DNA of 56,964 nt, the filler included, from Malassezia furfur (taxonomy: Eukaryota), in NCBI GenBank assembly GCA_052055015.1. It is 4 parts of 4 records of this genome, joined end to end, with 100 filler letters (N's around TTAATTAATTAA, not from the genome) between each part and the next. Parts side by side here need not be neighbours in the genome. Positions count along the whole stretch, not along the records: positions 42,990 to 56,964 come from JBQJIT010000295.1; 3 more parts are not named here. One strand, 5' to 3'. The notes under the pieces are model-generated. The model made no database searches. It saw nothing but the letters and a program-made list of their open reading frames with translations, and had not been told where the DNA came from. Shown one piece after another: positions 14,318-56,964 of the stretch. The position numbers were made by a program, and so were the translations under genes. Numbering within the stretch: the first letter of the stretch is position 1; each line of letters begins with the position of its first letter.

Positions 14318-14417
14318 NNNNNNNNNNNNNNNNNNNNNNNNNNNNNNNNNNNNNNNNNNNNTTAATTAATTAANNNNNNNNNNNNNNNNNNNNNNNNNNN
14401 NNNNNNNNNNNNNNNNN
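14318..14417. other. Assembly gap with artificial linker N44-TTAATTAATTAA-N44
   Basis: 100-nt N block with a six-frame stop spacer; identical to the other two gaps. Confidence 0.97.
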
Positions 14418-28610: not shown

Positions 28611-28710
28611 NNNNNNNNNNNNNNNNNNNNNNNNNNNNNNNNNNNNNNNNNNNNTTAATTAATTAANNNNNNNNNNNNNNNNNNNNNNNNNNNNNNNNNN
28701 NNNNNNNNNN
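28611..28710. other. Assembly gap with artificial linker
   Basis: N44-TTAATTAATTAA-N44. Confidence 0.97.
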
Positions 28711-34974: not shown

Positions 34975-35009
34975 GGTCGTCTGCAACGCGCCTCCACATC
35001 GCACAGGCC

Positions 35010-37442
35010 ATGCCCACGACGCCGGGAGGACGCGGGGGCCCATCGACGCCCAAGCGCAAGGCGGGCGGCGCAGGTGCGTCGCCGTCGCGCAAGCGCACAC
35101 TCACAGGGCAACCGACGCTCTTGTCGTTTCTGGGCACGTCGCCCAGCGCGAAACGCAGCGCTGCGCCCGAGGTGGACGACCCGTTTGCCGGCGACCGCCT
35201 CTCGGACGAGGCACTTGCCCGGCACCTTGCCGGCGGCAATGACCAGCTGGATGCGGACGAAGCGTATGCGCGGGCCCTGCAAGAGGCATGGAATGTCGAG
35301 GACAGCGGTGTACAGGAGGCAAGCACGGCACAGCCTCTGCAGGTAGACGGCGCGGCGCAGGACGCCGACGCGGTGCAGGATGCCGACGCGGTGCAGGACG
35401 CCGATGCGACGCAGGACGTCGATGCGATACCGGAGGTCAACACAATGCAAGATACCCCTTTGACGCCGGTGGGCCCGTTGCCCTCCGCGCCTGCCAAGGC
35501 GCGCGTCGACGTCGCTGCCCTTGACGCGTGCATAGCGGCCATCGACCTTGCCGAGGACCCCGAGACGTTCTCGACCGACATCGACACAACGCACTGGCCA
35601 CACGATGGCGGCGTGGTACATGTACCGTATGCGCTCTTTGCCCACGGCTTTGCGCGACTCAACGGCGAGCGCTCGCGCATCCTCATCCTGCGCATCCTCA
35701 CCAACCTGCTGCGCCTCGTGCGGGCCTACGAGCCGGACCAGCTCGTGCCCGCGCTGTACCTACTGAGCAACGAGATCGCCCCGTCGTACGCCGGCATCGA
35801 GCTCGGCGTCGGCGGGGCGCTGCTACAAAAAGCGACGATGCAAGTGTCGGGCCGTACGGCTGCCTTTCTCCGGCGCGCCTGGACGCAGTATGGCGACGCG
35901 GGCGACGTCGCGTTCGTGGCATGCCGCGGCATGACGCAGCTCGTACAGCATGAGCCACTCACCGTCGGCAAGGTGTACGCGACGCTGTGGGCGATTGCGC
36001 GCGCCAGCGGTGCGCGGTCTATGCGCGAGAAACAGCGTCTCGTGAGCGGTCTGCTGCTGGCCAGCCGCGGCGAGGAGCGGCGTTTCGTGGTTCGCACACT
36101 GAGTGCCAACCTGCGCATCCACGCGATGCGTACCACCGTCCTCGCCGCGCTCGTGCGGGCATACGTGCTGGACGACGCGGCGTTTGTGGGCGTCGCTGCG
36201 GCCGAGGCCGAGGCGCTTGCGAAGCGCGCCTATGCGCGGCACCCCAATTGGCAAGGGATGGTCGACGCGCTGCGGGCCGGTGACCTCACTGGCTTGGACC
36301 TGGCCGTGGGTGTGCCTGTGACGCCGATGCTCGGTAGCATCACGCGCTCGCTCGACGCCGTGCACGCGACGATGCGTGACGCGCCGTTCGTGAGCGAGTT
36401 CAAGTACGACGGGCAGCGCGTCCAGCTGCATGTGGATGGCGAGCGTGTACACATCTTCAGCCGGTACCTCGAGACGATCACAGATAAGTACCCCGACGTG
36501 GTCGCAATGGTGCCCCAGCTGCAGACGCATGCGCAGGCATTTATCCTCGACGCCGAGGTCGTTGCCGTGTCCGACACGGGCGTCTTACCATTCCAGACGC
36601 TCGCGGGGCGCGCGCGCAAGGATGTGGCGCTTGACGCGGTGCAGGTGCGTGTGTGTGTGTATGCGTTCGACGTGCTCTACCTCGACGGGACGTCGATGCT
36701 CGGCGCGACGCTGCGTGAGCGCCGCGCGGCGCTGCGGCGCCATTTCCCCGCCTCGGTGCGTGCCACAGCGGCGCATGCGGGCTTTGCGTTTGCGACATCG
36801 TCCGAGGCGACGTCGGCGGACGAGGTTGCCGCCTTCTTCCACGAGGCGTGTGCCCAGCACTGCGAAGGCGTCATGGTCAAGAGCCTGGACCATGTGCCTG
36901 AGGGGCCGCTCGCGACGTACGAGCCGGACAAGCGCACCGAGGCGTGGCTCAAGGTAAAGAAGGACTACTTGGCGGACCTCGGCGATGCGCTCGACCTTGT
37001 GCCGATCGGCGCATGGCACGGCATGGGGCGCAAGACGGCGTTCTGGAGCCCGATCTTGCTCGCCGTGTATGACCGCGAGACGGGCATGTACGAGGCGGTG
37101 TGCAAGTGCATGAGCGGCTTCTCGGACGCGTTTTACCAGGAGCTCAACGCGCGCTATGGCTCTGCGCAGGATCCTCCGCCGTCGTTTGCGCACGACGGGC
37201 TGTACGCGCTTGGCGACGTGCGCCCTGCCGTGCTCTGGCCACCGACTGAGGTGTGGGAAATCCGCGGCGCAGAGATCACCGCATCGCCGACGTACCCCGC
37301 GGCCACCGACCTCGCGGTGCCCGGCCGCGGGCTTTCTGTGCGCTTCCCGCGCTTCATCCGGCGCCGCGACGACCGTCCGCCGGAGAGCGCCATGACGCCG
37401 ACCGAACTGGCCAAGCTGTACCTCGCGCGCGCTACAGGGTAG
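35010..37442 (+). CDS. ATP-dependent DNA ligase I-family paralogue (Adl1-like)
   Basis: Adenylation motif EFKYDGQR, LDAE, FDVLY, CEGVMVK, WLKVKKDY and SVRFPRF. PIP-box-like QPTLLSFL at 35109-35132. Confidence 0.9.
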   Translation: MPTTPGGRGGPSTPKRKAGGAGASPSRKRTLTGQPTLLSFLGTSPSAKRSAAPEVDDPFAGDRLSDEALARHLAGGNDQLDADEAYARALQEAWNVEDSGVQEASTAQPLQVDGAAQDADAVQDADAVQDADATQDVDAIPEVNTMQDTPLTPVGPLPSAPAKARVDVAALDACIAAIDLAEDPETFSTDIDTTHWPHDGGVVHVPYALFAHGFARLNGERSRILILRILTNLLRLVRAYEPDQLVPALYLLSNEIAPSYAGIELGVGGALLQKATMQVSGRTAAFLRRAWTQYGDAGDVAFVACRGMTQLVQHEPLTVGKVYATLWAIARASGARSMREKQRLVSGLLLASRGEERRFVVRTLSANLRIHAMRTTVLAALVRAYVLDDAAFVGVAAAEAEALAKRAYARHPNWQGMVDALRAGDLTGLDLAVGVPVTPMLGSITRSLDAVHATMRDAPFVSEFKYDGQRVQLHVDGERVHIFSRYLETITDKYPDVVAMVPQLQTHAQAFILDAEVVAVSDTGVLPFQTLAGRARKDVALDAVQVRVCVYAFDVLYLDGTSMLGATLRERRAALRRHFPASVRATAAHAGFAFATSSEATSADEVAAFFHEACAQHCEGVMVKSLDHVPEGPLATYEPDKRTEAWLKVKKDYLADLGDALDLVPIGAWHGMGRKTAFWSPILLAVYDRETGMYEAVCKCMSGFSDAFYQELNARYGSAQDPPPSFAHDGLYALGDVRPAVLWPPTEVWEIRGAEITASPTYPAATDLAVPGRGLSVRFPRFIRRRDDRPPESAMTPTELAKLYLARATG
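35357..35428 (+). repeat. Coding 18-nt tandem repeat (QDADAV)x~4
   Basis: GCAGGACGCCGACGCGGT-like units. Confidence 0.75.
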
Positions 37443-42889: not shown

Positions 42890-42989
42890 NNNNNNNNNNN
42901 NNNNNNNNNNNNNNNNNNNNNNNNNNNNNNNNNTTAATTAATTAANNNNNNNNNNNNNNNNNNNNNNNNNNNNNNNNNNNNNNNNNNNN
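42890..42989. other. Assembly gap with artificial linker
   Basis: N44-TTAATTAATTAA-N44. Confidence 0.97.
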
Positions 42990-44774
42990 TGCAGCGGCGG
43001 CGCCCACAGCGGCGGCGGCGGCGCCCGCGGGCGAAGCGGCGGGTGGCGCACCCGGTGGCGCCTCGGAGCACGACCTGTTTAGCGCCGTGATTGGTGTGTA
43101 CGACGCCGACGAGCTCGACGAGGACGAGGCGGTGCACAGCTTTGAGATCCGCGAAGAGTTCATCGAGACGGTCAAGCGGCGGTGCAACGAACTGGGATTC
43201 CCGATGCTCGAGGAGTACGACTTCCGCAACGACCGTATGAACCCCGACTTGGACATCGACCTGAAGCCCATCACGCACATCCGGCCGTACCAGGAGAAGA
43301 GCCTCGCGAAGATGTTCGGCAACAGCCGCGCGCGCAGCGGCATCATTGTGCTGCCGTGTGGCGCGGGCAAGACGCTCGTCGGCATCACGGCCGCCTGCAC
43401 GATCAAGAAGAGCTGTTTGGTGCTGTGTACGAGCAGTGTGAGTGTGATGCAGTGGCGGCAGCAGTTCCTGCAGTGGAGCAACGTGCAGGACTCGCAGATC
43501 AGCGTGTTCACTGCGGACGAGAAGCAAAAGTTCTCGGGCGCGTCGGGCATCGTCGTGTCAACGTACTCGATGGTCGCCAACACCGGCAAGCGGTCGCACA
43601 CGTCGCAAAAGATGATGAACTTTCTCGAGAGCCGCGAGTGGGGTTTCATTTTGCTCGACGAGGTGCACGTCGTGCCTGCGAGCATGTTCCGTCGCGTCCT
43701 GACCAAGATCAAGGCGCATGCCAAGCTTGGCCTCACCGGTACGTCTTGCCCACTCACCCAGCGACGCTCGTGCGTGAGGACGAAAAGATTGACGAGCTCA
43801 ACTTCCTCGTGGGCCCGAAGCTGTACGAGGCGAACTGGATGGACCTCGCCGCCAAGGGCCACATTGCGACGGTGCAGTGCGCCGAGGTGTGGTGTTCGAT
43901 GACCGCCGAGTTCTACCGCGAGTACCTCCGCGAAAAGAGCCGCAAGAAGATGCTGCTGTACTGCATGAACCCCACCAAGTTCCAGGCGGCGCAGTACCTT
44001 ATCCAATACCACGAGAACCGCGGCGACAAGATCATCGTCTTTTCCGACAACGTGTATGCGCTCGAGGCGTACGCCATCAAGCTCGGCAAGCCGTACATCC
44101 ACGGCGGCACGCCGCAGATTGAGCGCATGCGCATTTTGCAAAACTTTCAGCACAACCCCATTGTCAATACCATCTTCCTGTCCAAGGTCGGCGACACGTC
44201 GATCGACCTGCCCGAGGCGACGTGCCTCATCCAGATCTCGTCGCACTTTGGCTCGCGCCGACAAGAGGCGCAGCGTCTTGGCCGCATTCTGCGTGCGAAG
44301 CGGCGCAACGACGAGGGGTTCAATGCGTTCTTCTACAGCCTCGTCAGCAAGGACACCGCCGAGATGTACTATTCGACGAAGCGGCAGCAGTTCCTCATCG
44401 ACCAGGGCTACGCCTTCCGCGTGATCATGAATCTGGTCGGCCAGCAGAACATGCCCGGCCTCGTGTACTCGACCAAGTCGGAGCAGATCGAGCTGTTGCA
44501 GAGCGTGCTGATCGCCTCGGAGAGCGCCGCCGACTTTGGCTCGGATGTGCACGCGGGCGAAATGGGCCTGGCGCCGGGCAGCGCGCCCAAGGCGAAGCGC
44601 ATGACGGGCAGTTTGAACGCGCTGAGTGGCGCACAGCACATGTCCTACGTGGTACGTATCTATCTTGCTCACACCCAGGAACGCAACCGCTCCATGAACC
44701 GCCAGCTCGCGCACGACCAGCCGCGCCACAAAATGTTCCAGAAGCGAGCCGCGGGCGCCAAGCGGCGTACATAG
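42990..44774 (+). CDS. SSL2: TFIIH helicase XPB (Ssl2/Rad25), 5' part missing in the gap
   Basis: [24 protein letters not shown] (after the 23-nt intron 43739-43761) and [13 protein letters not shown]. In-frame 27-nt intron 44652-44678. Confidence 0.96.
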
Positions 44775-44935
44775 CACGTGGCCCACGTGGCCCAGATGGC
44801 CAGATCTCGTTTTTTTCGGGGTATCATTGCAATTCTCTTCCTATCCCCCGCCGCCACGCCCCATTCGATTGCAATTTTTTTGGCACCACGCACGCGCGTG
44901 TACGCGAAGGACGACACGCGACGGGAGTTGGCGCC

Positions 44936-46804
44936 ATGGCGGACCCCACAATCTCTTCGGCGATGCTGGACGGCGTGCCCATGGGTGGCGTGCGTGCTCC
45001 TGCGTACGCACAGGGCATGCCCCCCCAGCAGGCGCTCGACAGCGTCTCCATCAAGGTCGGCGACCTCTTCCCCAACATGAAGCAGTTCCGCGCGAAGCTC
45101 GGGCTGTACGGCATTACGCACAAATGTCCATACCGCGCGCGGCGCAGCGACAACAGCCGCTTCGTGGGCATCTGTCCCACCGTAATGAACGAGCTCAAGA
45201 AGGAGGACCACGCGCACGGCGCGGGCCTCGGCGGCGAGCAGGGCAAGGCGCGGGCCGCCGACAAGCCGTCGTGCCCGTTTAACGTGATTGCGCGGCGGCG
45301 CAAGGAGGGAGGTGTTTGTGTGACGCGCGCAATGCTTGCGCACTCGCCCGACTGCACCGCGCCTGTGACGTTCTCGACGTCGGCAACATCGGCGTACATG
45401 GCGCAGTTGATGGACGACCAAGCGTCCAACATTGCGCCTCGCGAGATCGGCAAGTACGTGCACGAGGCGACCGGCACGAAACTGTCGTACTCGACGCTGT
45501 GGCGCACGTCGCACCTGCTCGCCACCAAGGAGCGCGAGCGGCAGGACACGACGTTCAAAAAAATCGTGCCTTTCCTCAACGCATTCCGCGAGGCGAACCC
45601 GGGGACCCTCGCGGTGATTGAGCAGCGCCCCGACGCGCGCTTCTACCGTGCCTTCCTGTGCCCTGGCGCGCTGGCGAACGCGTTTGGCGAATGTCCGTTT
45701 ATCCTGCATGTCGAATCGACGCCCATCACCTCGTTCCACGGCGGCTTCTTGCTGATTGCCTACGTCAAGGACGGGCTCGGGGCGCTTGTGCCGCTCGCGA
45801 TGGGCATCACACCGCAGGAGGACGAGGAGAACTGGCGCTTCTTTTTCCACCAGCTGCTCACGGCGTTGCCCATCATTGGATGCCCCGGCGTGACGGTGAC
45901 CCATGCCAAGGACGCGGCAATCAACGATGCGCAGCTATCGGTGCTGCCGGCGTCACGGAGTAGCACCAATGTCATGCGGCTCGACTGGACCGCGTCCGGG
46001 ACGCTGCACGAGTACTACTCGCAGCTGTCGCAGCTGTGCTCGAACAGCTATTTTGCCATCATGGTTGGCTGGATCACCCAAGTGGCCGTGCTCATCTATG
46101 CGCGCTACGTTGAGCTCGAGACGGAGCACAGCGTGTTCCCCGGCGGGATCCTTGGGCGGATGCACGTCGGCTCGAGTGGCTGGGAGGTGGCGTCGTTTGG
46201 GCCGTCCGACTACCTGGTGGTCAATGCGCACGAGAAGCAGCAGGTCAACCTGGCGCTACGGACGTGCAGCTGTGGGCAGTGGCTCGAGCAGCCATTCCCG
46301 TGCATCCACGCGATTCGGTGCCTGCCGCTCGAGCGCCTCGTCGGCCTTGGCCAGTTTATCCACCCGTCGCACTTCACCGAGAGCGTGCGTCGGTGCTACT
46401 CGCGCCGCATGGCGCTCATTGACGCCAATGCTGTCCCGCCCCAGGACGACCAAGGCTTTGACCAGGCGGCGGTGGGGCGCGAGGCGATGATGATCCCCAC
46501 CGAGATGCCGCTGCTGCCGCCGTCCAGCGGCAAGCCCGAGAAGCGCGGGCGCGGGCGACCGCGCGTCGTGCGCCCCAACAACGGTGGCCGCGGGTCCGGC
46601 CTCGGCGCCATGTACCAGTGCGGCCACTGCCACGGCAAGGGCCACAATTCCCGCACCTGTCCACTAAACAACAAAAACGAGCAACCCCCTGTTCCTGCCC
46701 CCGAGACGATGCCCACCACGGCGCAGCCGCCTGCAGCGATGTTCGGCGATGCGCCCGTGCCCTTCGCGATTGATGCAGCACTCACACATCCGGCCGCTGT
46801 ATAA
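44936..46804 (+). CDS. Mutator (MULE) transposase-derived protein: MuDR-type N-terminal domain, degenerate MULE core, SWIM finger, AT-hook, CCHC knuckle
   Basis: IKVGDLFPNMKQFR...CPFNVIAR...H; LHVEST...KDGLGALVPLAMGITPQEDEENWRFF; CSCGQW..QPFPCIHA; KRGRGRPR; CGHCHGKGHNSRTC. Confidence 0.85.
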   Translation: MADPTISSAMLDGVPMGGVRAPAYAQGMPPQQALDSVSIKVGDLFPNMKQFRAKLGLYGITHKCPYRARRSDNSRFVGICPTVMNELKKEDHAHGAGLGGEQGKARAADKPSCPFNVIARRRKEGGVCVTRAMLAHSPDCTAPVTFSTSATSAYMAQLMDDQASNIAPREIGKYVHEATGTKLSYSTLWRTSHLLATKERERQDTTFKKIVPFLNAFREANPGTLAVIEQRPDARFYRAFLCPGALANAFGECPFILHVESTPITSFHGGFLLIAYVKDGLGALVPLAMGITPQEDEENWRFFFHQLLTALPIIGCPGVTVTHAKDAAINDAQLSVLPASRSSTNVMRLDWTASGTLHEYYSQLSQLCSNSYFAIMVGWITQVAVLIYARYVELETEHSVFPGGILGRMHVGSSGWEVASFGPSDYLVVNAHEKQQVNLALRTCSCGQWLEQPFPCIHAIRCLPLERLVGLGQFIHPSHFTESVRRCYSRRMALIDANAVPPQDDQGFDQAAVGREAMMIPTEMPLLPPSSGKPEKRGRGRPRVVRPNNGGRGSGLGAMYQCGHCHGKGHNSRTCPLNNKNEQPPVPAPETMPTTAQPPAAMFGDAPVPFAIDAALTHPAAV

Positions 46805-46834
46805 GTAGCTATTGTATCATTTGTATTGTTGCGC

Positions 46835-47492
46835 CTACTTCTTCTTCTTGGTGTCCTTCTTGTCGACGCGCTGCGCCTCAAGCTTGGCAATCTGCTCCTT
46901 GCGCACCTTTTCTTCGAGCTTGCGGTCCTGGCGGACCGCGTACCACTCGCCGCCTTGGAACAGCAGCACGCCGAGCAGCAGCGACGCGATGATCACGTTG
47001 GTCGCAGCAATGACCTGCACCAGCGACACGCGCTCGCGGTCCGTCAGTGGCATCGCCGCGTCTTCTTCGCTGCGCTGCGGCGCCTTTTCAAACACACCGC
47101 GGATAATGTAGTACTCTTCCGCGGGGTTCTGCAGCGCGCGCATGTTGGGCAAGGTCACGATGAGGTACATGAGGATTGAGCCAAAGTAAAGCACTGCGTG
47201 AGTGTGCGCATCACATACAGACACTGCCCATCCCAAAGTAGCGGTCGTTCTCCGTCCAGCGGTGCATCTTGGCGAGGATGCCAATCAGACCGAGACCCAT
47301 CACGGCGTGGAAGAGCGTCGCAATGGTCATCGGCGCATTGTACATCGACAGATAGAACTCCTCCGCACGGTGGAAAGCCTGTTCCGTCACATGCCCGTCG
47401 AACAGCAAGGGAAAATCGAACCGCGAGGTGATGAAAAGTACACCATACACGAACGAAATGCTCACAATCACGAAGCCTGTCCGGAAGCCCAT
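46835..47492 (-). CDS. SHR3: ER packaging chaperone for amino acid permeases (Shr3)
   Basis: MGFRTGFVIVSISFVYGVLF, GLIGILAKMHRWTE..YF and VIAATNVII...GVLLFQGGEWYA. 25-nt intron 47194-47218. Confidence 0.85.
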
Positions 47493-47902
47493 CTTGGCGC
47501 GAAGGAACGTGGACGATAACCACCTGCGATACAAGCGTATCGCCACGTGGCACAAGGTGCGATCGCGTCCGCGACCTCGCCTAGCCGTGCGTGCCGTTCC
47601 TGCAATTCCGCAGATGAATACACCCAGACTTCACTATCGGATTCCTACTGTGCGCCGCCTGCGGCGCTCACCATACTGCCAGACTCCCCGGGTCCTGTTC
47701 GACGCCTCGGGTGTGGGCGTCATGCTTAGCTAATCATGACCCAAACAGGCGACCCACGCGACGTGGGCGGCCCGTGCGTGGGGCTAGAAAGGTGGGAAAG
47801 AAGCCCATCGAAATGCGGTCGATTGCTGCACGGACATTCGGGCTCGATCAGACCCCTCATATATAGCCGCTCTAGCGCGCTCCTGCTCTTTTCTTCACCA
47901 AC

Positions 47903-48877
47903 ATGTCCCTGAGCAAGACGATTACCTTTAACGACGGCAACAAGATGCCCCAGATCGGCCTTGGCACCTGGCTGTCCAAGCCAGGTGAGGTTGAGAACGC
48001 CGTGGTCGAGGCGGTGAAGGCCGGCTACCGTCACCTGGACCTGGCCAAGATCTACCAGAACCAGCACGAGGTCGGTGCCGCGCTCAAGAAGCTGATCCCC
48101 TCGGTGGTGAAGCGCGAGGACCTGTTCATCACCTCGAAGCTGTGGAACACGGAGCACCAGCCGGACCGCGTCGAGCCTGCGCTCGACGACACGCTCAAGG
48201 AGCTCGGCATTGACTACCTTGATCTCTACCTGATCCACTGGCCCGTCGCCTTTGACCCCAGCTCGGGCGAGCTGCTTCCCAAGGAGGACGGCAAGGCCAA
48301 GCTCGATCTCAAGACGACCGAGGCCGAGACCTGGAAGGCTATGGTTGAGCTCAAGAAGACGGGCAAAGTCAAGTCGATTGGTGTGTCCAACTTCAGCCCG
48401 AGCGCCATTGAGCAGATCACCAAGTACACCGGCGTGGCCCCTGCTGTGAACCAGATCGAGGCGCACCCGCTTCTGCCTCAGGACGACCTGGTGGAGTGGC
48501 ACAAGAAGAACAACGTCCACATCACGGCCTACTCGCCGCTGGGCAACAACCTTACGGGGCAGAAGCGCCTTACCGAGTTCCCGCAGGTGATTGAGATTGC
48601 GGAGCGCCGCAAGGTGGACCCTGCGCAGGTGCTGATCGCTTGGGGCGTGCACCGTGGCTACTCGGTGATTCCGAAGAGTGTGACGCCGTCGCGCATCGTG
48701 AGCAACTTTGAGCAGATCGAGATCTCGGATGACGAGTACAAGGCGGTGTGCAAGATCATGAACGACAACGGCGGACACGTGCGCTACAACACGCCGATCA
48801 CCTACGACCCGCCGTGGGACATCAACGTGTTCGGCGAGGAGGTGGAGAAGAAGGCGACGCACCAGCTCGTGATTTGA
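47903..48877 (+). CDS. Aldo-keto reductase, copy 1
   Basis: GLGTW, GYRHLDLAKIY, ITSKLW, LIHWP, IGVSNF and VIPKS. TATATA upstream at about 47860. Confidence 0.95.
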   Translation: MSLSKTITFNDGNKMPQIGLGTWLSKPGEVENAVVEAVKAGYRHLDLAKIYQNQHEVGAALKKLIPSVVKREDLFITSKLWNTEHQPDRVEPALDDTLKELGIDYLDLYLIHWPVAFDPSSGELLPKEDGKAKLDLKTTEAETWKAMVELKKTGKVKSIGVSNFSPSAIEQITKYTGVAPAVNQIEAHPLLPQDDLVEWHKKNNVHITAYSPLGNNLTGQKRLTEFPQVIEIAERRKVDPAQVLIAWGVHRGYSVIPKSVTPSRIVSNFEQIEISDDEYKAVCKIMNDNGGHVRYNTPITYDPPWDINVFGEEVEKKATHQLVI

Positions 48878-49083
48878 GTAAGAGCAATGTTTTATGTAGC
48901 TTAGGCAATTGTGGTTTTACCATGAAAATACCGCGCGCGGACCACTCGTGCTAAGAGTCGTGCAGCGCCCGCGCTATCGTTGGGGTTCCCACCTTATCAG
49001 AAGTCCCGATATGTCAGCAACGTGGCGCAGTTCCGTGGGCGCACGAGAGGACACCCGTAATAATTCCCTCACTTTATAACGTC

Positions 49084-50092
49084 ATGTCCGACGGGAAGGT
49101 GCGTGGATTTGTGCTCATCCTAGAAAATTACGCTCAACGATGGCCACCAGATGCCGCAGCTCGGTCTAGGCACCTGGCGCTCCCAGCCTGGTGAGGTCGG
49201 CCAAGCCGTCGAGGACGCCATCCGCGCGGGCTACCGCCATCTGGACCTAGCCAAAATCTACGGCAACCAGAAGGAGATTGGTGAAGCACTGAAGCGCGTC
49301 GTTCCCTCGGTCGTGAAGCGTGAAGATCTGTTCATTACGTCCAAGCTCTGGAACACGTTCCACAAGCCGGAGGACGTGCTTCCCGCGCTGCAGGACACCC
49401 TTGACGAGCTGGGTCTCGACTACATCGACATGTACCTTTCGCACTGGCCTGTTGCGTTTGACGGCTCCAGCGGCGAGCTTCGTCCGGCGAAGGACGGCAA
49501 GGCGGTGCTGAACCTAGACACACCGTTTGCTGACACGTGGAAGGCCATGATTGAGCTCAAGAAGACGGGCAAGGTCAAGTCGATCGGCGTCTCCAACTGC
49601 CGCACGGACATTATCGACGGCATCGCGAAGGCGACCGGCGTGTATCCCGCTACGAACCAGATTGAGGCGCATCCTCTGCTGCCGCAGGATGACCTGGTCA
49701 AGCACCACAAGGAACACAACATCCTCATTACAGCCTACGCGCCCCTGGGTAGCAGCCCGCCCGGCCGAGACCGCCTTCTGATCCAGGAGCCGCTGGTCGA
49801 GGAAATCGCCAAGGAGTGTGGTGCGGACGCTGGTCAAGTGCTGCTGGCATGGGGCGTCCGTCGTGGCTATGCGGTAATCCCCAAGAGTGTGACCAAGTCG
49901 CGGATCGAAAGCAACTTCCAGCAGATCTCGCTGACGGATGAGCAATTCGACCGGATCTCGAGTCTGTGCAAGAAGCTGGGAGGACCGATCCGCTTCTTTA
50001 CGCCCTATGGCAACTTCCAGCCGCTGTGGGACATCAATGTGTTTAACGAGCCTGCTGAGCAGGCCGCGACACACCAAATCAGGGTGGTATAA
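49084..50092 (+). CDS. Aldo-keto reductase, copy 2
   Basis: MSDGK, 25-nt intron 49099-49123, then KITLNDG; D-Y-K-H catalytic tetrad intact. Confidence 0.94.
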
Positions 50093-50187
50093 AATTCGAC
50101 GTAGACGTGCAAGGACCCTGGGTTACTTACGTAGGCACCGATCTAATCGGGTGCACGGGCCAGGCGGGACTTCTTCTCGTTGTCACC

Positions 50188-51190
50188 ATGTCGTTCGGCA
50201 ACGTACGTGTCGCTACTCATTCAGAGCATTCAGATGAACGATGGCCGTTCCATCCCGCAAATTGGGCTTGGTTCGGTGCTGAAGTCGGGTGAGGACACCC
50301 AGCGTATTGTGGAGTATGCGATCAAGACCGGCTACCGCCACCTCGATCTCGCGAAAGCGTACAAAAACCAGCGCGATGTTGGGGCTGCGCTGAAGAAAGT
50401 CATTCCCGCAAAGATTTCGCGTGAGGAGCTTTTCATCACGTCCAAGGTGTGGAACAACATGCACTCGCCTGAAGACGTAGAGCGCTCTCTGAATGACACG
50501 CTCGAGGAACTTGGCGTGGACTACCTCGACCTCTTCCTGATGCACTGGCCTGTTGCCTTTGATGCGCCCATGAACGATTTCCGTATCGAAGAGAACGGGT
50601 GGGTCAAGCTCGATTTCCAGCACTCTGTGGTGGACACATGGAAAGCTATGATTGCGATGCAAAAGACGGGCAAAGTCAAGTCGATTGGCGTGTCCAACTT
50701 CCGCCCAGACATCATCGATGCTATTGTGCGCGAGACGGGTGTGAAGCCCGTGGTGAACCAGATCGAGGCGCACCCTCTGCTCCCGCAGGACGACTGGGTG
50801 GAGTACCACCGGAAGCACGACATTGTGATTACGGCCTATGCGCCACTGGGAAACAACATGACGAACCAGCGCAAGATTGTGGACTACCCCCAAGTTGCTA
50901 CGATTGCGTCTCGTCGCAAAGTGAGCCCGTCACAGGTACTCATTGCGTGGGGTGTTCGGCGTGGGTATGTCGTTATTCCTCGAAGCTCAAATCCCGAGCA
51001 CATTGTGAACAATTACGAGCAAATCGAGCTCAGTGACGAGGAATACAAGCAAGTATCGAGCTTGGTGGACGAGGCCGGAGGTCCTACGCGTTTCTTTATT
51101 CCGTACAAGACGTTCAACCCGAGGTGGGACATTAACGTGTTCAACGAGCCGGAGGAGAAGGAAGCCTCGCACCAAATCAAGGTCACGTAG
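50188..51190 (+). CDS. Aldo-keto reductase, copy 3
   Basis: MSFGN, 22-nt intron 50203-50224, then SIQMNDG; tetrad intact; GLGSV and IPRS variants. Confidence 0.93.
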
Positions 51191-51197
51191 CGTGTCT

Positions 51198-51760
51198 TTA
51201 GTGCATGTGCGTAGTAGTACGGTATCCTTCTTGTGCCTTCTCGAACCAGGTGTCAACATCCCATTCCGGGAAAACGAGCGACAATTCCCGCAGTGCCGAC
51301 TCGGTCGAATCGGATCCGTGGAACCCATTCCGGGTATCTCCCATGCCAAGTTGTGCACGAAGGCAGGCTGGAGCCTCATATACAGCGCGATAGGCTTTGG
51401 TCGGCCCAATAAGACCTCTCCATGTAGCGATGGCATTCGGCCCAGCGAGGCACAGGCCCAAGGCGCGTCCGGCTGTCATCCCTAGAATTAAGCGGTCGTA
51501 ATAAAACTTGCCCAGATGCTCAGCGTAAAAGCGTGCTGCATCTTCTTCGGTCCAGACGAACGGCTTAGTGCGGACAATCTGGTGTTAGTCTCTGGACAAA
51601 CCTGGAGGTCGGTGCGCTCGCGGATCTGTTTGAGTGCGTACTGGATGTTGGGTTCATAGGCGCACACTGTGGGCTTAATGAGAGCAAGAGTGACTTCCAA
51701 TGGAGCTGCTACATGTGCCAGTGAGCGCCTCCCGAGCGTGGCAAACGCGCCGCGATGCAT
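51198..51760 (-). CDS. Nucleoside diphosphate kinase, NDK6-like (probably mitochondrial)
   Basis: TLALIKP, FYAEHLGKFYYDRL, WRGLIGPTK and DTRNGFHGSDS. 23-nt intron 51579-51601. Alternative ATG at 51781. Confidence 0.88.
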
Positions 51761-52235
51761 CGCAGCACTGCGTACGCCCATTGTGGGAACGGATGCGCCA
51801 ATGTGGAGGTGATCCCTGTCGAGCTATCAAAAATTTACACCGCACACTGCATAGGCGCACGCACCCTGCGCCAACGACATCTCATCGAGGTCGTGTAGAT
51901 GATATTTTTATTCTAGACCGAACACAATTCGTCTACAACATACACATAGGTAAGAAAAAAAATAGCATTGCATACAGGATCGCCACCTACTCCAACCGGC
52001 AGAGTTGGGCATACGATCCAGGTCGTGAGTCGTTCATATATCGTGCACGTCCACGGTCATAGAAAGGACGCAAAAAGGCGAGGGGCGCAAACACCGGTAA
52101 ATTGAGTCCCAAAGTCGTGATGAAAAAAAAAAGGGCCTAGGCAGCGTGAAACAAGTTTTGATGTTTGTTTTTTTCCTTTTGGCAGTCACAACGGGGGAAA
52201 TACAATCGCGGCATTGGAAATCAGGTAGATGTCGT

Positions 52236-52442
52236 TTAGAGACCACCGCCGCTGCGTTCCACGGTAACTACGCGGTTGCCAGGGTTCATGGCGGCGACTT
52301 GCGCAGAGCGGCGCGAGTTGCCGGCGGTTGCGGCAAGCACAAGGGCCGCCGATCTGGATAGTGTTAGTAACCTGCTCCCTCTCGGTGTTGTGCACACGTA
52401 CCCGATGAAAAGCGTGCTAGGGCGCCAGATGTTTGCAATCAT
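52236..52442 (-). CDS. Spliced 52-aa microprotein ending VERSGGGL
   Basis: ATG at 52442; 48-nt intron 52354-52401 with GTACGT donor, TACTAAC branch site and CAG acceptor; TATATA about 60 nt upstream. Confidence 0.7.
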   Translation of the reverse strand: MIANIWRPSTLFIGYVCTTPRGSRLLTLSRSAALVLAATAGNSRRSAQVAAMNPGNRVVTVERSGGGL

Positions 52443-52786
52443 GGTAATTTGGTAGATGAAGAACGCAAGAGCGGTAAAAACCGCCGTGCCTTTCGCCCCA
52501 TCTATATAAAGTGTTTGGCCAGCCTGTGCGCTCCCAACTTTCGGCGTGGCGGCGCAACCTCGCCTAGAGCGCTATGCCATCCACCAATCACGCGTGACAC
52601 CCAAAAAAAAGACGCGACGCCAAAAATCTCAGGGGCCGCCATAGGACCCATCCATTTTTCTCGGCCGAATTATTGCTGCGGCACGCGGTGCTGGTGCGCG
52701 ATTGGGACGATCGCGTTGTTTGTCGGCTTTACGACGGGCGTTGCGTGTGTCTGTGCACGCCCGGCTGGTGAAGCGAGCACGCAGGA

Positions 52787-55309
52787 ATGCCGAGTGTGGT
52801 CGGCGACACTAGCGCGCAAGGGTGGGGTCGTGATGGGACGAGCCCGCTGCGTCGCTCGGCGCGCCTGAGCAGCACCATATCGCCGCGGCCAGCGCGCACG
52901 GATCGGTCGGTGCGGACGCCCATGTCCGAGTCGATTGCGCGCGTGCGCATGCGCGAGCGCGGCACGGACGAGGTGCGCGACGCGTCTGCGTGGGGCTCGT
53001 CGCTGTACTCGGCCGGGTCAGGGGCACGCGACCCGTCGATGGTGAGCAGCTACTACCTGCGTCCGGCCGAGCCGGACGCGTCGCACGCCGATGCGGACGC
53101 GACGGGCACGTCGCTTGCGGACGAGTCGAGCGTGTCCGACGTGTTTTCGGGGCTAGGGTCGCTCCTGCGTGGCGCACAGCGTCCTCCGCAGACGCCCAAG
53201 TCATCCATGCGGCATGCGTCGCACGCTGCGCCCGACGCGGAAGAAGACTATGCACAGGAGGACCAGTTTATGGAGCAGGTGGAGGACCAATGGCGTGGGC
53301 AGCGTGCGGACGCGGACGCGAACCCCTTTGTGCATGCGCCGCATGCCGCGCCCGACGCGGCACCCACGCCGATGCGCACGCCACACGTCCCCGGCGTCTT
53401 CCGCTCGGCGCGGCGCGCGCGGCGCGTCGATCCGAACGAGTCGCAGGCCACCGACGATGCGTCGCTGGGCGAAGCCGCACCCGACGTGGCGCCAAGTGCA
53501 CGCTCGGCGCCTGCGCTTGGCACGATACCCCGGCTCATGTTGCTTGGTGCCCTAGTGGTGCTGGTGTACTGGGCTCTGTTTGCCACGTCGCGTGTGTCGC
53601 TGCCTTCGTTTGGGCGGCCAGCGACGCCGCCGCTAGTCGAGCGGCCCTGGCGTGCAACGTCGTCCTCCGCATCGGTGGACGAGCTGCGCAAGCGCATCGA
53701 CACGCTTGAGGGCGCCGTGAACAAGATTTGGCGCTCGTTTGGCGACGTCGGGGCCGAGATGAAGCAGCAGCACGCGGCGCTTAACGAGCGGCTGCGCACG
53801 GTTGAGCAGCGCTCTGCGCTGCAGTCCACCGTCGATGCGCTCGAGCGCCAGGTGCAGACGCTGCGTGCGGCGCAGGCGGACGACGCCAAGCGCTGGGCGG
53901 ACGAGAAGCGGCATACCGAGTCGCTGCTCGCGCGCCTGGCGGTCGTAGAGCAAGGCGGCGGCGGTGGCAGCAGCGGCAGCAGCCGCTCTGCGCTGCCCGC
54001 TGATGCCGCAGCGTCGATGCGCGACAAGCTCGCGGAGCTCGAGGTGCGTGTCGCACGCGCCGCGCGGCAGGCCGAGCGTGCCGACGGCGCGGCCGACGAG
54101 GCGAAGCAGGCGGTGGATGCGCTGCGCCGGGTCGTGCCGGACGAGATGCCCGTGCGCTACGACCGGCACACGAAGCGCGTGTACGTTGATCCGGCCGTGT
54201 ACCGGGAGCTGCGCAAGGTGCTGGGCACGTCGAGTGGCGCGGCCGGTTCGGCACGTCCCGAGTCGTGGGCGGCGTTCCTCAACGCGAACCGCGGTGCGCT
54301 CGAGACGATGTTTGCCGCATCGATCAAGGAGCACTTGCAGGCGCGCACGGCGTCGGGCATGCTGCTCGACCGGGAGTCGTTCCTCGCGCTGCTGCAGAGC
54401 GAGTTGACGCGCGCCAAGACGGAGCTGAGTACGCGGTTCAACGAGAACGCGCAGTCGCTGCAGACCGAGATCCTCGCCAAGGTGCGGCAGCAGCAGGAGA
54501 TGTACGAGCAGTCGGGATCGTGGCACAAGCCGGCCGCGGCGCAGGCGTGGGACAGCCCAACGTTCTTGCACGACTCGGTGCGTGCGGGCGAGGGTGTCGC
54601 GGGCCTGATCGATGCGGCGCTCGCGACCTATGCCGCGGACCAGATTGCACGTGCCGACTACGCGCAGTATTCGGCGGGCGCACGCGTGGTGCCGGGCCTG
54701 ACGAGCCCCACGCACGAGGTGCGCCTCGGTGGGCGCAACGTGCACAGCGTGTGGAGCGTGGTGCAGGCGCTCGTGCCTCTGCCGCAGCTCGGCACGCCCA
54801 GCACGTATGCGGCGCGCGGGCGCATGCCGGCCGTCGCGCTGCACCACGACAATGCGCCCGGCATGTGCTGGCCCTTCTCCGGCTCGCACGGGCAGCTCGG
54901 CATCCAGCTCGTGCGTGCGATCCATGTGGAGGCGATCACGATCGACCACGTGCCGGCGGTGCTGGCGCTGAGCGGCGTGGGGGCTGCGCCGCGCGAGATG
55001 GAGGCGTGGGGCGTCCTGCAGACGCCCGAGGAGCGCCGGCAGCTTGCGCAGTGGCGCGCGCAGCGTGCGCGCACCGAGGACGGCACCGAGGAGCCGACGC
55101 CCGTGCCGCCGTCGCCCGCGCACGTGTACCTTGGCGCGTTTGTGTACGACACGGCGGGCGCGGCGATCCAGACGTTCCCCGTGTCGTCCGAGGGCGCGGC
55201 GTTCCCGCTGCCGCTGCGCGTCGTGCAGCTGAATGTGCTGAGCAACCACGGGTTGCGCGACTATACATGCTTGTACCGCGTGCGTGTGCACGGCACGCCG
55301 GCCGACTAG
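52787..55309 (+). CDS. SUN-domain nuclear envelope/spindle pole body protein (Sad1-like)
   Basis: TM segment LMLLGALVVLVYWALF, coiled coils, and SUN domain DYAQYSAGARV...PGMCWPFSG...ITIDH...SNHG...TCLYRVRVHG. Confidence 0.92.
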   Translation: MPSVVGDTSAQGWGRDGTSPLRRSARLSSTISPRPARTDRSVRTPMSESIARVRMRERGTDEVRDASAWGSSLYSAGSGARDPSMVSSYYLRPAEPDASHADADATGTSLADESSVSDVFSGLGSLLRGAQRPPQTPKSSMRHASHAAPDAEEDYAQEDQFMEQVEDQWRGQRADADANPFVHAPHAAPDAAPTPMRTPHVPGVFRSARRARRVDPNESQATDDASLGEAAPDVAPSARSAPALGTIPRLMLLGALVVLVYWALFATSRVSLPSFGRPATPPLVERPWRATSSSASVDELRKRIDTLEGAVNKIWRSFGDVGAEMKQQHAALNERLRTVEQRSALQSTVDALERQVQTLRAAQADDAKRWADEKRHTESLLARLAVVEQGGGGGSSGSSRSALPADAAASMRDKLAELEVRVARAARQAERADGAADEAKQAVDALRRVVPDEMPVRYDRHTKRVYVDPAVYRELRKVLGTSSGAAGSARPESWAAFLNANRGALETMFAASIKEHLQARTASGMLLDRESFLALLQSELTRAKTELSTRFNENAQSLQTEILAKVRQQQEMYEQSGSWHKPAAAQAWDSPTFLHDSVRAGEGVAGLIDAALATYAADQIARADYAQYSAGARVVPGLTSPTHEVRLGGRNVHSVWSVVQALVPLPQLGTPSTYAARGRMPAVALHHDNAPGMCWPFSGSHGQLGIQLVRAIHVEAITIDHVPAVLALSGVGAAPREMEAWGVLQTPEERRQLAQWRAQRARTEDGTEEPTPVPPSPAHVYLGAFVYDTAGAAIQTFPVSSEGAAFPLPLRVVQLNVLSNHGLRDYTCLYRVRVHGTPAD

Positions 55310-55320
55310 TATACAGCGAG

Positions 55321-56691
55321 CTAATAGCCCTCGAGATCGAGTGCATCGAGCACCTGCGACGGGTCGTCGTCGTCGTCGTCGTACTCTTCGTCCTCCTCGT
55401 CCACGAGCTCGTCGTCGTCCACGAGCGTGTCGTCGCCCGCGCCCTCGTCGTCCACGAGTGCGTCGGCGCGTGCGTCGGCGTCGCCGGCGGGCGCGTGCGT
55501 CGCCTCGCCGAGCGGCGGCACGTCGCGGCGCCACGTGCGCTCCGTCGGGACGTGCGCGTCGTACGCGGCCACGAGCGGCGTGCGCTGCGGGTCGTGCGGG
55601 TGGGCCGCGCCGGCCGCGCGCTCGCCGCGGTACTCGCGGGGCGTGAGCGGTTCGACGTCGCCCGCGTCCTGCACGGGTCGCGCGCGCGGCGTGAGCAGCT
55701 CCATATCGTGCGAGGCGGGCGCGGCCGGCGCGCCCAGGGCGTCGTGGTCTGCGCCTGGGCCGTCGTGCATGCCGTGTGCGTGTCCCGCGGCCGAGTGTGG
55801 CCGTGAGTCGCTGTACTCGCTCGAGGCGTGGCTCGACGCGCGCTCGTCGCTGCCGCGGTGCGACAGCTCGGAAAAGTCGGAGGCCGACAGCGAGCTGGGC
55901 GTGCGTGAGCGCGGCCAGCTAGCCGCGGTCCATACCGCGCCGAAGCGCACCCGCTGCGCCTCGACGTAGTGCTCGCTGCGCTGGAAGTGGATGCGCAGCG
56001 ACGGGTGGTGGAACGCCGCGTCCTCGGTGCGCCAGTTGGGGTGCGCCGCGAGCGCGGGCCACACCCACGTCGGGATGCGCGCGCGCTCGGGCAGGAGCAC
56101 GCCGTCCGGCTCGCCGTAGTGGTCGAGGAAGTGCGCGAGGTGCTTTGGCAGGCCGTACGACGTGCCGGCCAGGCGGTTCGGCGCGACGAGCAGGCCGCGC
56201 GCGAGCTCGACGCGGATGCTCGTCTCCGTCCATGCCTGGATCTTGCGCAGGCACGCGACGAGCATGCACGTCACCTCGACGCCATCGAGGCAGTGCACGT
56301 ACAGCGGCAGATTCTCGCGGTTGAGCAGCTCGAGCATGGCGCGCGCGGCACCTTCACGGGAGAGGCCGCCCGTGTCCTCCTTCGGCTTCTCGGTGCGGAC
56401 GTGGATGATGCGCACGCCCGTCCCGCCGTTCTGCCGCTGGGCCCATGCGGCGATCGCGGGGTCGCTGTCGAGCGGCTGCGGCGTGAGCGAGACGATGGTG
56501 CGGAGATGCAGCGTCTCGAGGAACGGCAGGTTGCGCAGCTTGGGGTACGCGCCGCAGTACAGGCACTCGGAAAAGGTGGTCGCGCGCGCCATCTCCCCCG
56601 AGCTTGTCTCGGACTCTGTCGTGCCCACGCACGGCGGGGGGAACGCGATAGTGCCGAACCGCATCGGCGGCGCCAGCGGCACCCGGCCCAT
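55321..56691 (-). CDS. Siw14/Oca-family tyrosine phosphatase-like protein (Oca6-like)
   Basis: PPMRF, LYCGAYPKLRNLPFLETLHLRTIVSLTP and YVHCLDG...VACLRKIQAW; acidic tail. Confidence 0.82.
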   Translation of the reverse strand: MGRVPLAPPMRFGTIAFPPPCVGTTESETSSGEMARATTFSECLYCGAYPKLRNLPFLETLHLRTIVSLTPQPLDSDPAIAAWAQRQNGGTGVRIIHVRTEKPKEDTGGLSREGAARAMLELLNRENLPLYVHCLDGVEVTCMLVACLRKIQAWTETSIRVELARGLLVAPNRLAGTSYGLPKHLAHFLDHYGEPDGVLLPERARIPTWVWPALAAHPNWRTEDAAFHHPSLRIHFQRSEHYVEAQRVRFGAVWTAASWPRSRTPSSLSASDFSELSHRGSDERASSHASSEYSDSRPHSAAGHAHGMHDGPGADHDALGAPAAPASHDMELLTPRARPVQDAGDVEPLTPREYRGERAAGAAHPHDPQRTPLVAAYDAHVPTERTWRRDVPPLGEATHAPAGDADARADALVDDEGAGDDTLVDDDELVDEEDEEYDDDDDDPSQVLDALDLEGY

Positions 56692-56733
56692 GGTGGCTCT
56701 CGCTGTCACGTGAAGTGTTGTTGTTTGGCTACG

Positions 56734-56964
56734 ATGGCGTACGTGCGGGGTACGCAGGCGCCGATGGACCTCGAGCCGAGCACCGAGCGGCGTACGTCGC
56801 TCACTTACGCAGCGTCTGTGTTTGACGCACCGCCGCCAGACGCCGCGGGCGACGTGTCCCTGATGGACGTCGAGGAGGTTGCGCCGGAGCCGGCGTTTAC
56901 GCCGCTCGCCGTCGGCGCGCCGAGCGCCGCCGTGCCCGGCCTGCGCTCGCGCAAGGAGGGCACG
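56734..56964 (+). CDS. 5' end of a gene, possibly Brr6/Brl1 nuclear envelope protein (partial)
   Basis: MAYVRGTQAPMDLE resembles, from memory, the fungal Brl1 N-terminal xPMD motif. Candidate 21-nt intron 56792-56812. Runs off the window. Confidence 0.45.
   Translation, partial: MAYVRGTQAPMDLEPSTERRTSLTYAASVFDAPPPDAAGDVSLMDVEEVAPEPAFTPLAVGAPSAAVPGLRSRKEGT

Follow-up and report, generated by a model that had tools for sequence, protein, structure and literature searches.

A probable domesticated Mutator-like transposase with a shortened core, lying between SSL2 and SHR3 in Malassezia, is a candidate DNA-binding regulator

What is a transposase-like protein doing in the short interval between two ordinary genes of a Malassezia genome? 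The question is raised by a locus of Malassezia furfur (GenBank assembly GCA_052055015.1) within a stretch of 56,964 nucleotides, here called the window and taken at its full length of 57 kb, whose positions 42,990 to 56,964 come from record JBQJIT010000295.1. There, an open reading frame (ORF) at 44936..46804 on the plus strand runs from ATG to TAA without interruption of the frame and encodes 622 amino acids plus the stop. An initial annotation of this DNA had taken the ORF for an intact, intronless and immobile Mutator-like element (MULE) transposase that had lost its catalytic acids and been co-opted by its host as a candidate novel transcription factor. We find that it is almost certainly a domesticated MULE transposase, and we hold it to be reasonably probable that the whole is best explained as a single host gene, fixed between SSL2 and SHR3, with the role of a DNA-binding regulator. 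The intact and intronless frame can be retained from the earlier description, since orthologues are alignable with the ORF from the first Met to the last residue and no intron is needed.

The order of modules along the protein is that of a MULE transposase (zinc region, core, SWIM, AT-hook, CCHC), as had been proposed, and it is recovered by Pfam, by profile alignment and by direct reading. An N-terminal MuDR/WRKY-GCM1-type zinc finger (residues 38-145; 45047..45370, on the plus strand like every feature of the ORF) has the ligands C80, C113, H136 and C140 and a variable insert (residues 83-110) between its two Cys. It is followed by a conserved helical region between finger and core (residues 146-224; 45371..45607), an RNase H-like core (residues 225-395; 45608..46120), and a SWIM zinc finger together with the helices behind it (residues 431-500; 46226..46435). 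Further downstream lie an AT-hook-like stretch, KRGRGRPRVVR (residues 536-546; 46541..46573), in which inspection of the residues between SWIM and the knuckle shows the AT-hook KRGRGRPRV (residues 536-544), a CCHC zinc knuckle (residues 559-577; 46610..46666), and finally, in the disordered tail, a short C-terminal motif of the form F-x-D/E-A-x-V-P-F-x-I/L-D (residues 602-622; 46739..46801) in which F603, V608 and F610 are invariant. In a Pfam search of the single protein, as the initial annotation had advised, DBD_Tnp_Mut (PF03108) at residues 38-80 scored just over its cut-off (25.1 bits against 25), MULE and SWIM fell under theirs, and zf-CCHC_6 at residues 561-590 reached 17 bits against a cut-off of 22; the FAR1 DNA-binding family was absent from the four Pfam matches that the window protein has at E<=1. 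Among 14 aligned proteins, DBD_Tnp_Mut was matched in 12, SWIM in 11, MULE in 10 and CCHC in 4 (E<=0.01).

Because the single-sequence Pfam scores were weak, homology was tested with profiles, and it is these that back MULE descent. An alignment of the Malassezia proteins compared by hhalign with 18 canonical MULEs gave a probability of 100 and an E-value of 1e-74 over 496 columns, reaching from the zinc finger to the CCHC knuckle. A profile of the Malassezia proteins was run through a library of 1.84 billion representative proteins and detected 2733 relatives at E<=0.001, of which 571 reached E<=1e-10 and 24 reached E<=1e-30; the score dropped from 1114 bits for the Malassezia representative to 237 bits for the next match, which indicates that this library contains no intermediate orthologue. 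The nearest relatives outside Malassezia (E 1e-65 to 1e-54) possess full MULE and SWIM Pfam domains, and 20 non-Malassezia relatives scanned with Pfam at E<=0.001 contained MULE in 18 cases, SWIM in 19 and DBD_Tnp_Mut in 7. The CxC...CxH of SWIM and the GRP of the AT-hook are invariant in Malassezia and in the 15 non-Malassezia proteins aligned with them. A family-wide profile of 115 sequences also matched two solved structures: at E 2.9e-8 ISCth4, a bacterial transposase of the Mutator family, and at E 1.9e-7 the DNA-binding domain of yeast Aft2, the latter match including the CPF-x-I/V-x-A strand. The MULE, Aft and FAR1 subgroup of WRKY-GCM1 fingers is described as carrying a positively charged insert of variable length between two of its Cys ligands (PMC1702500). 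The ORF is descended from a MULE subfamily that combines a MuDR/WRKY-type finger and RNase H-like core with SWIM, an AT-hook of the GRP form and a CCHC knuckle.

Whether such a descendant is a host gene or a transposon copy can be judged from its relatives and their surroundings. Besides that of the window, a large protein collection holds 13 proteins, namely 12 of 576-711 amino acids at 60-85% identity and a fragment of 353 amino acids from M. nana. The orthologue clusters include M. globosa MGL_4018 and an M. restricta 'zinc finger protein', existing annotation is generic ('hypothetical', 'SWIM-type domain-containing' or 'zinc finger protein'), and the frame is intact in all orthologues found. 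Upstream, the ORF is separated by 161 nt from the end, at 44774, of the C-terminal exon of SSL2/RAD25 (XPB helicase; 43839..44774, plus strand; ERCC3_RAD25_C, E 1e-125). Downstream, 30 nt separate it from the stop, at 46835, of the convergent SHR3, an endoplasmic reticulum chaperone gene that lies on the minus strand at 46835..47492 in two ORF pieces (46835-47170 and 47211-47492) and beyond which comes an aldo-keto reductase gene. These gaps agree with those first noted, about 160 and 30 nt. A scan of metagenome contigs yielded 25 loci, 7 of them Malassezia-like at 50-71% identity, and the synteny proposed as a check was found there throughout: the order SSL2, MULE-derived gene, convergent SHR3 and aldo-keto reductase is present in all five full Malassezia-like loci, which amount to three distinct sequences (L001 and L002 are identical, L004 and L005 nearly so, and L003 is the third), both partial loci show the 3' end of the gene followed by SHR3 and the aldo-keto reductase, and all 7 are at the same site. 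Amino-acid identity to the window is 60-71% for the MULE-derived gene, 85-89% for SSL2, 48-56% for SHR3 and 69-71% for the aldo-keto reductase, which places the gene between its two neighbours and on a level with the reductase.

The gene also evolves under purifying selection. By the Nei-Gojobori method the proportion of non-synonymous differences between species (pN) is 0.15-0.22, against a synonymous proportion (pS) of 0.70-0.88 at which synonymous sites are saturated, and a rough ratio of non-synonymous to synonymous rates (dN/dS) of ~0.13 at a dS of ~2 was obtained only for the pairs window-L004 and window-L005. Between L004 and L005 themselves there are 8 synonymous differences and 1 non-synonymous difference. 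The evolution of the MULE-derived gene is non-neutral. As to mobility, no inverted-repeat pair with one arm in 44775-44935 and the other in 46805-46834 was found that could represent terminal inverted repeats (TIRs), and there is no second copy within the window. Base composition is close to that of the neighbours, as had been stated, with a GC content of 0.654 overall and 0.842 at third codon positions (GC3) in the ORF, compared with 0.61 and 0.865-0.883 in three neighbouring genes. The genome had further been called transposon-poor, and this is supported at the level of the genus by a survey of fungal cut-and-paste transposons, the relevant part of which gives Malassezia 'less than ten active elements' (PMC5751038). 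Fixation of the gene most probably predates the divergence of the sampled Malassezia species, and transposition would no longer be needed. Both 'immobile' and 'co-opted' are upheld by the lack of TIRs, of a second copy in the window and of any departure from synteny in the five full loci, by a pN far below pS and by a catalytic centre that is not intact; and none of the outcomes named beforehand as contrary (dispersed TIR-bearing copies, looked for in the window, absence from the locus, an intact catalytic Asp-Asp-Glu (DDE) triad, or neutrality) was encountered.

How much of the catalytic centre is left? As canonical reference we used 18 aligned relatives, in which the first catalytic Asp is found in vDaCH and the second in HDReKG, followed by CxxH and TSN-x-AES; within this set there is no variation at either Asp, at the Cys or His of CxxH, or at the Thr or Asn of TSN-x-AES, and the Glu is present in at least 90%. 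The M. furfur protein reads 'VEST' from residue 259 and 'THAKD' from residue 322, aligned with vDaCH and HDReKG respectively. The position of the first Asp is occupied by Glu260 (codon 45713..45715), which is E in 11 and D in 2 of the 13 full-length Malassezia sequences, and that of the second by Ala324 (codon 45905..45907), where A is found five times, S three times, V once, and D and E twice each among the 13. CxxH is gone: about 65 residues are missing between the LP/strand after position 324 and the next long helix, and a short loop with D350 and W351 (residues 344-355; 45965..46000) replaces the ~65 canonical residues that include CxxH and a conserved Trp. The CxxH-bearing segment is missing in all Malassezia orthologues. 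On the helix after the fifth core strand, Glu359 (codon 46010..46012; E in 13 of 14, D in 1 of 14) may stand near the catalytic Glu, a placement on which alignments disagree, as MAFFT puts it one position from the canonical Glu and hhalign deletes the whole stretch. The alignment with canonical MULEs that had been called for thus finds the triad not intact, and the replacement of xDGT by VEST and of the second motif by THAKD, the absence of CxxH and the shortened core all match the initial description. The phrase 'lost catalytic acids' was too strong: at the first acid the change from D to E is conservative and D persists in 2 of 13, the second position, although A, S or V in 9 of 13, is still acidic in the other 4, and Glu359, which may stand near the third acid, is nearly invariant.

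In Muta1, Ala at D214, D283, E419 or W401 is reported to abolish cleavage and joining and to leave TIR binding unaffected, and the same source describes a (C/D)xxH motif and a Trp as marks common to MULE and hAT transposases (PMC5499845). The feature set of active MULEs, that is the DDE triad, (C/D)xxH and a Trp before the Glu, is not found in the window protein. Since 9 of 13 orthologues have Ala, Ser or Val at position 324, the conserved function is not catalysis, which is very probably dispensable for it. The second catalytic position is free to vary from species to species, and the segment with CxxH and Trp has been removed.

An AlphaFold2 model built on the 115-sequence alignment, which replaced an unusable first model on 14 close relatives only (mean predicted local distance difference test (pLDDT) 34.9), reached a pLDDT of 82.6 and a predicted template-modelling score of 0.77 and shows a compact RNase H-like core. 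The N-terminal domain is predicted with four strands and two helices at a pLDDT >90. In the core, strands at 256-263, 271-278 and 284-292 are followed by a helix at 297-310, a strand at 320-322, a helix at 327-336, a strand at 341-343 and helices at 356-367 and 372-395, that is the order beta1-beta2-beta3-alpha1-beta4-alpha2-beta5-alpha4-alpha5 with the helical insertion domain absent. Glu260 is placed on the first strand, Ala324 just past the fourth, and Glu359 on the helix after the fifth. A Foldseek search with the model returned ISCth4 at the top (E 3.5e-6) and then retroviral integrases, and on our reading the model depicts a MULE core cut back to roughly what an integrase core spans. A homodimer prediction for residues 205-500 scored 0.00, 'no answer', and we draw nothing from it either way.

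If catalysis is not what has been preserved, the pattern of constraint may indicate what has. Expressed as mean pairwise identity among the 13 full-length Malassezia sequences, the CCHC knuckle is the most conserved module (0.93), followed by the helical region 146-224 (0.88), the two halves of the zinc finger (0.85 and 0.78), the SWIM region (0.81), PLLPP plus AT-hook (0.80) and the RNase H-like core (0.68). The C-terminal motif stands at 0.49, the insert between the two Cys ligands of the finger at 0.25, and three other linkers and tails at 0.19-0.27. Zinc ligands C80, C113, H136 and C140 are nearly invariant, and C444, C446, C456 and H458 of SWIM and C562, C565, H570 and C575 of the knuckle are invariant. 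Strong constraint has thus preserved all four nucleic-acid-binding or zinc modules.

The region 5' of the gene carries marks of its own. This putative promoter of 161 nt (44775..44935, plus strand) contains two CACGTG boxes and two ATTGCAAT palindromes. The boxes, which had been pointed out before, lie at 44775-44780 and 44784-44789, and each of the four species compared has a CACGTG box 146-204 nt 5' of the start codon; at window level CACGTG is not statistically remarkable, with 27 found and 33 expected. The two ATTGCAAT palindromes, at 44826-44833 and 44868-44875 and thus 42 nt apart, are the sole two of the window, with 0.5 expected window-wide, and a TTGCAAT-TCGCTCC block is recognisable in all four promoters (window, L001, L003 and L004). 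A conserved promoter footprint of this kind would fit a regulated host gene, and the ATTGCAAT pair and the related TTGCAAT-TCGCTCC block may be a candidate binding site for another factor or for the protein itself.

Although speculative, a mechanism can be sketched in which the protein would be a sequence-specific DNA-binding factor, most likely a transcriptional regulator. Its zinc finger would read a specific site and its AT-hook would add minor-groove contacts; the trimmed RNase H-like core and SWIM would form a structural or partner-binding scaffold, as in FHY3/FAR1, and the conserved acidic-hydrophobic C-terminal motif would recruit a partner. Toward a transcription-factor-like role as such we lean only slightly, by analogy, and a number of our own results weigh against the account as a whole. 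Pfam scored MULE (residues 268-341) at 18.4 bits, under the cut-off of 27.6, and SWIM (residues 437-460) at 19.3 bits, just under 19.6; the Malassezia-only profile matched no solved structure at E<=1, neither ISCth4 nor Aft2, and for this reason the Aft2 link runs via the wider family profile only. Acidic residues stand at 260, 324 and 359 in 4 of 13 orthologues (E-D-E in the two clusters to which M. globosa MGL_4018 and the M. restricta protein belong, D-E-E in another two), and with Glu359 nearly invariant there may be residual metal binding or catalysis in some species. Moreover, dN/dS is poorly estimable, as only one species pair has synonymous sites short of saturation, single-copy status is drawn from the window and the metagenomic loci, and the transcription-factor role is something we infer from the conserved modules and from the analogy with FHY3/FAR1 and Aft1/2.

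Against this background other explanations have to be considered. That the ORF is a dead, neutrally drifting transposon copy or a still-mobile element is scarcely credible: clear MULE descent and weakened Pfam scores would be expected of it, whereas frames are intact in every orthologue, synteny holds in all five full loci, pN is far under pS, the close pair shows the 8:1 excess of synonymous changes, TIRs are lacking and GC3 resembles that of host genes. More serious, and in our view unlikely without being negligible, is that the protein is domesticated and is something other than a transcription factor, namely an architectural or chromatin DNA-binding protein (of centromeres, telomeres, replication or repair) or a CCHC-based RNA or single-stranded DNA (ssDNA) factor with SWIM for protein interaction. 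The evidence for domestication fits this equally well, AT-hooks are typical of architectural factors, no activation domain has been demonstrated, and the knuckle and helical region 146-224 are the most conserved parts; as CCHC knuckles in other proteins bind single-stranded nucleic acid, an RNA- or ssDNA-directed role is possible and counts as a further point against our account. On the other hand, the WRKY/MuDR-type finger, conserved here at 0.78-0.85, is a sequence-specific DNA-binding fold in Aft2 and FHY3/FAR1, and the GRP and the four CCHC ligands are invariant also in the 15 non-Malassezia proteins, which makes them inherited features, not a new adaptation. A domesticated nuclease or recombinase that still cuts a host site, like K. 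lactis alpha3 or Kat1, is very improbable. It would draw on the three acidic residues of 4 of 13 orthologues, on the nearly invariant Glu359 and Trp351, and on the alpha3 precedent of a MULE-like gene serving mating-type switching, as reported in PMC4629796; yet 9 of 13 orthologues, the window's protein among them, carry Ala, Ser or Val at position 324, none of the orthologues retains the CxxH segment, cleavage and joining by Muta1 are reported to be abolished when the equivalent Asp is replaced by Ala (PMC5499845), and no mating-type or repeat structure lies nearby.

A DNA-binding host protein with a trimmed core, as we read the Malassezia gene, may have a counterpart elsewhere. Three profile matches lack the same core segment, two of them from Pythium insidiosum and Phytophthora kernoviae, and a search with the third gave 38 proteins at E<=1e-10 (query included) with 53-80% identity to the query. 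This oomycete family of core-deleted proteins (P0020, P0023, P0025 and P0203-P0237, outside the window) covers Globisporangium, Pythium, Lagenidium, Nothophytophthora, Albugo, many Phytophthora, Peronospora, Bremia, Plasmopara and Peronosclerospora, and its members are mostly named 'hypothetical' or 'SWIM-type'. All eight members aligned have Ser or Thr in place of the first Asp and Ser or Asn in place of the second, and in all of them a short low-complexity linker stands in for the segment from CxxH to Glu. The two groups resemble each other in belonging to the same MULE subfamily, in lacking the CxxH-to-Glu segment and in common 'ITS/VTS', 'LC' and 'VGW' residues; they differ in that the oomycete Asp positions are Ser, Thr or Asn and not Glu or Ala, in the length and low complexity of the linker, and in an identity of 26-29%.

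Do the two groups share an origin? Our supports are Shimodaira-Hasegawa-like approximate likelihood ratio test (SH-aLRT) values from quick trees only. A 51-row tree (8 Malassezia, 3 oomycetes and the first 40 of 84 hits of 500-1000 amino acids) grouped Malassezia, the oomycetes and a degenerate Codosiga sequence at SH-aLRT 84, and a 27-row tree recovered the same grouping at 88; in a post-hoc approximately unbiased (AU) test on the 27 rows, forcing Malassezia to group with six canonical neighbours lowered the log-likelihood by 9.8 units (p 0.02). In a 30-row tree with 8 oomycetes and 6 Malassezia and without the long rows P0029, P0028 and P0032, the groups fell apart within one clade (SH-aLRT 96), the oomycetes joining P0018/P0024 (86) and Malassezia joining P0030/P0026/P0036 (80). 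A sister relationship of Malassezia and oomycete genes is accordingly unsupported, being lost with more oomycetes and without the long Codosiga branch, and its dissolution in the 30-row tree marks it as unstable and probably due to long-branch attraction. The Codosiga sequence, P0029, comes from a Codosiga hollandica transcriptome and is itself a degenerate MULE relative in which the helical insertion segment is kept but neither Asp remains, nor the His of CxxH, nor the Glu; its very long branch drew the Malassezia and oomycete groups in the trees. It appears more likely that one MULE subfamily was domesticated twice independently, the same segment being lost by convergence, than that the two groups share an origin, and the oomycete family looks like an apparently undescribed second domestication parallel to the Malassezia gene. 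We regard as improbable a single event for both, with a tamed, CxxH-less gene passed by horizontal transfer between a basidiomycete yeast lineage and oomycetes, for which the same deleted segment, the derived residues, the groupings in the first two trees and the AU result can be cited.

Malassezia are the dominant fungi of human skin. As the gene is kept across the genus and no orthologue was found elsewhere among the 1.84 billion representative proteins, it is a candidate regulator of genus-specific traits. It would be a basidiomycete addition to the few known whole-length MULE domestications (FHY3/FAR1, MUSTANG and alpha3), and the gene and the oomycete family, taken together, suggest that domestication can follow a repeatable path in which finger, SWIM, AT-hook and knuckle are kept and the CxxH part is cut, leaving a compact core comparable in extent to that of retroviral integrases. 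Domestication of a MULE transposase is an already known kind of event; the excised CxxH-bearing segment is the distinctive feature here. Literature searches combining Malassezia with MULE, transposase, SWIM or FAR1 found no study of MGL_4018 or its orthologues, and supplements to genome and proteome papers, which were not examined, may list the gene.

The remainder of the window is made up of ordinary housekeeping genes, which encode three aldo-keto reductases, a septin, Chs7, SRP68, Med14, a NatB subunit, EME1, ETF-alpha, Ku, a DNA ligase, Ufd2 and a Sad1/UNC protein. The aldo-keto reductase genes lie in tandem past SHR3 on the plus strand (47903-48877, 49151-50089 and 50234-51187), and the orthologous loci share at least the first of them. 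The Ku70/80-family and ATP-dependent DNA ligase genes are adjacent and divergent (32740-37439), and with EME1 (23855-25174) and SSL2 (~43204-44774) several DNA-repair genes occur within one 57-kb stretch, probably by coincidence. Three pairs of 44-nt N runs, each split by 12 bases (14318-14417, 28611-28710 and 42890-42989), recur ~14.3 kb apart, one of them in the SSL2 region upstream of the ORF; they resemble masked stretches and not biology.

Among known systems, the Malassezia gene can first be compared with active MULEs. With Muta1, MuDR MURA and its nearest metagenomic relatives (P0016-P0021) it has in common the domain order, 28-30% identity over near full length, and the GRP AT-hook and CCHC knuckle, whereas these elements own invariant D, D, CxxH and TSN-x-AES and the Malassezia gene has no intact set, no TIRs and a fixed locus. 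Aft1 (Rcs1) and Aft2 of yeast and Rbf1 of Candida are not known to keep more than the DNA-binding domain, while the Malassezia protein also keeps core, SWIM, AT-hook and knuckle. They are likened to it by the Cys-Cys insert, described for these fungal regulators in an account that derives them from the MULE zinc finger (PMC1702500), and by the family-wide match to the Aft2 domain; in contrast, the Malassezia-only profile is without an Aft2 match (E<=1), and by profile and architecture the protein falls outside the Aft1/Aft2 (Rcs1) family. Aft genes are ascomycete, which makes the Malassezia domestication an independent event. The alpha3 protein of K. lactis reportedly acts, in work by Barsoum et al. 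of 2010, via DNA cleavage at the MAT locus. It is described as a singleton MULE-like gene that serves host mating-type switching (PMC4629796), and by that description it is alike in being a MULE-like gene kept by a yeast for the host's benefit; unlike it, the Malassezia protein has no conserved second Asp or CxxH segment and sits among housekeeping genes. A further parallel is offered by the FHY3/FAR1/FRS proteins, which are likewise full-length MULE-derived host proteins with an N-terminal zinc finger, a transposase-like centre and a C-terminal SWIM. They form a plant gene family, whereas we are dealing with a single gene of a basidiomycete yeast genus that matches DBD_Tnp_Mut, adds an AT-hook and a CCHC knuckle and has lost the CxxH segment. 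In FHY3/FAR1 the finger is reported to bind the FBS element, and target activation to be abolished when the transposase-like or SWIM regions are mutated (PMC6000157). The premise of the initial annotation, that MULE transposases are a source of host regulators, is sustained by the reports on FHY3/FAR1 (PMC6000157) and Aft (PMC1702500), and we treat FHY3/FAR1/FRS as a functional analogue of the Malassezia gene and not as the family to which it belongs.

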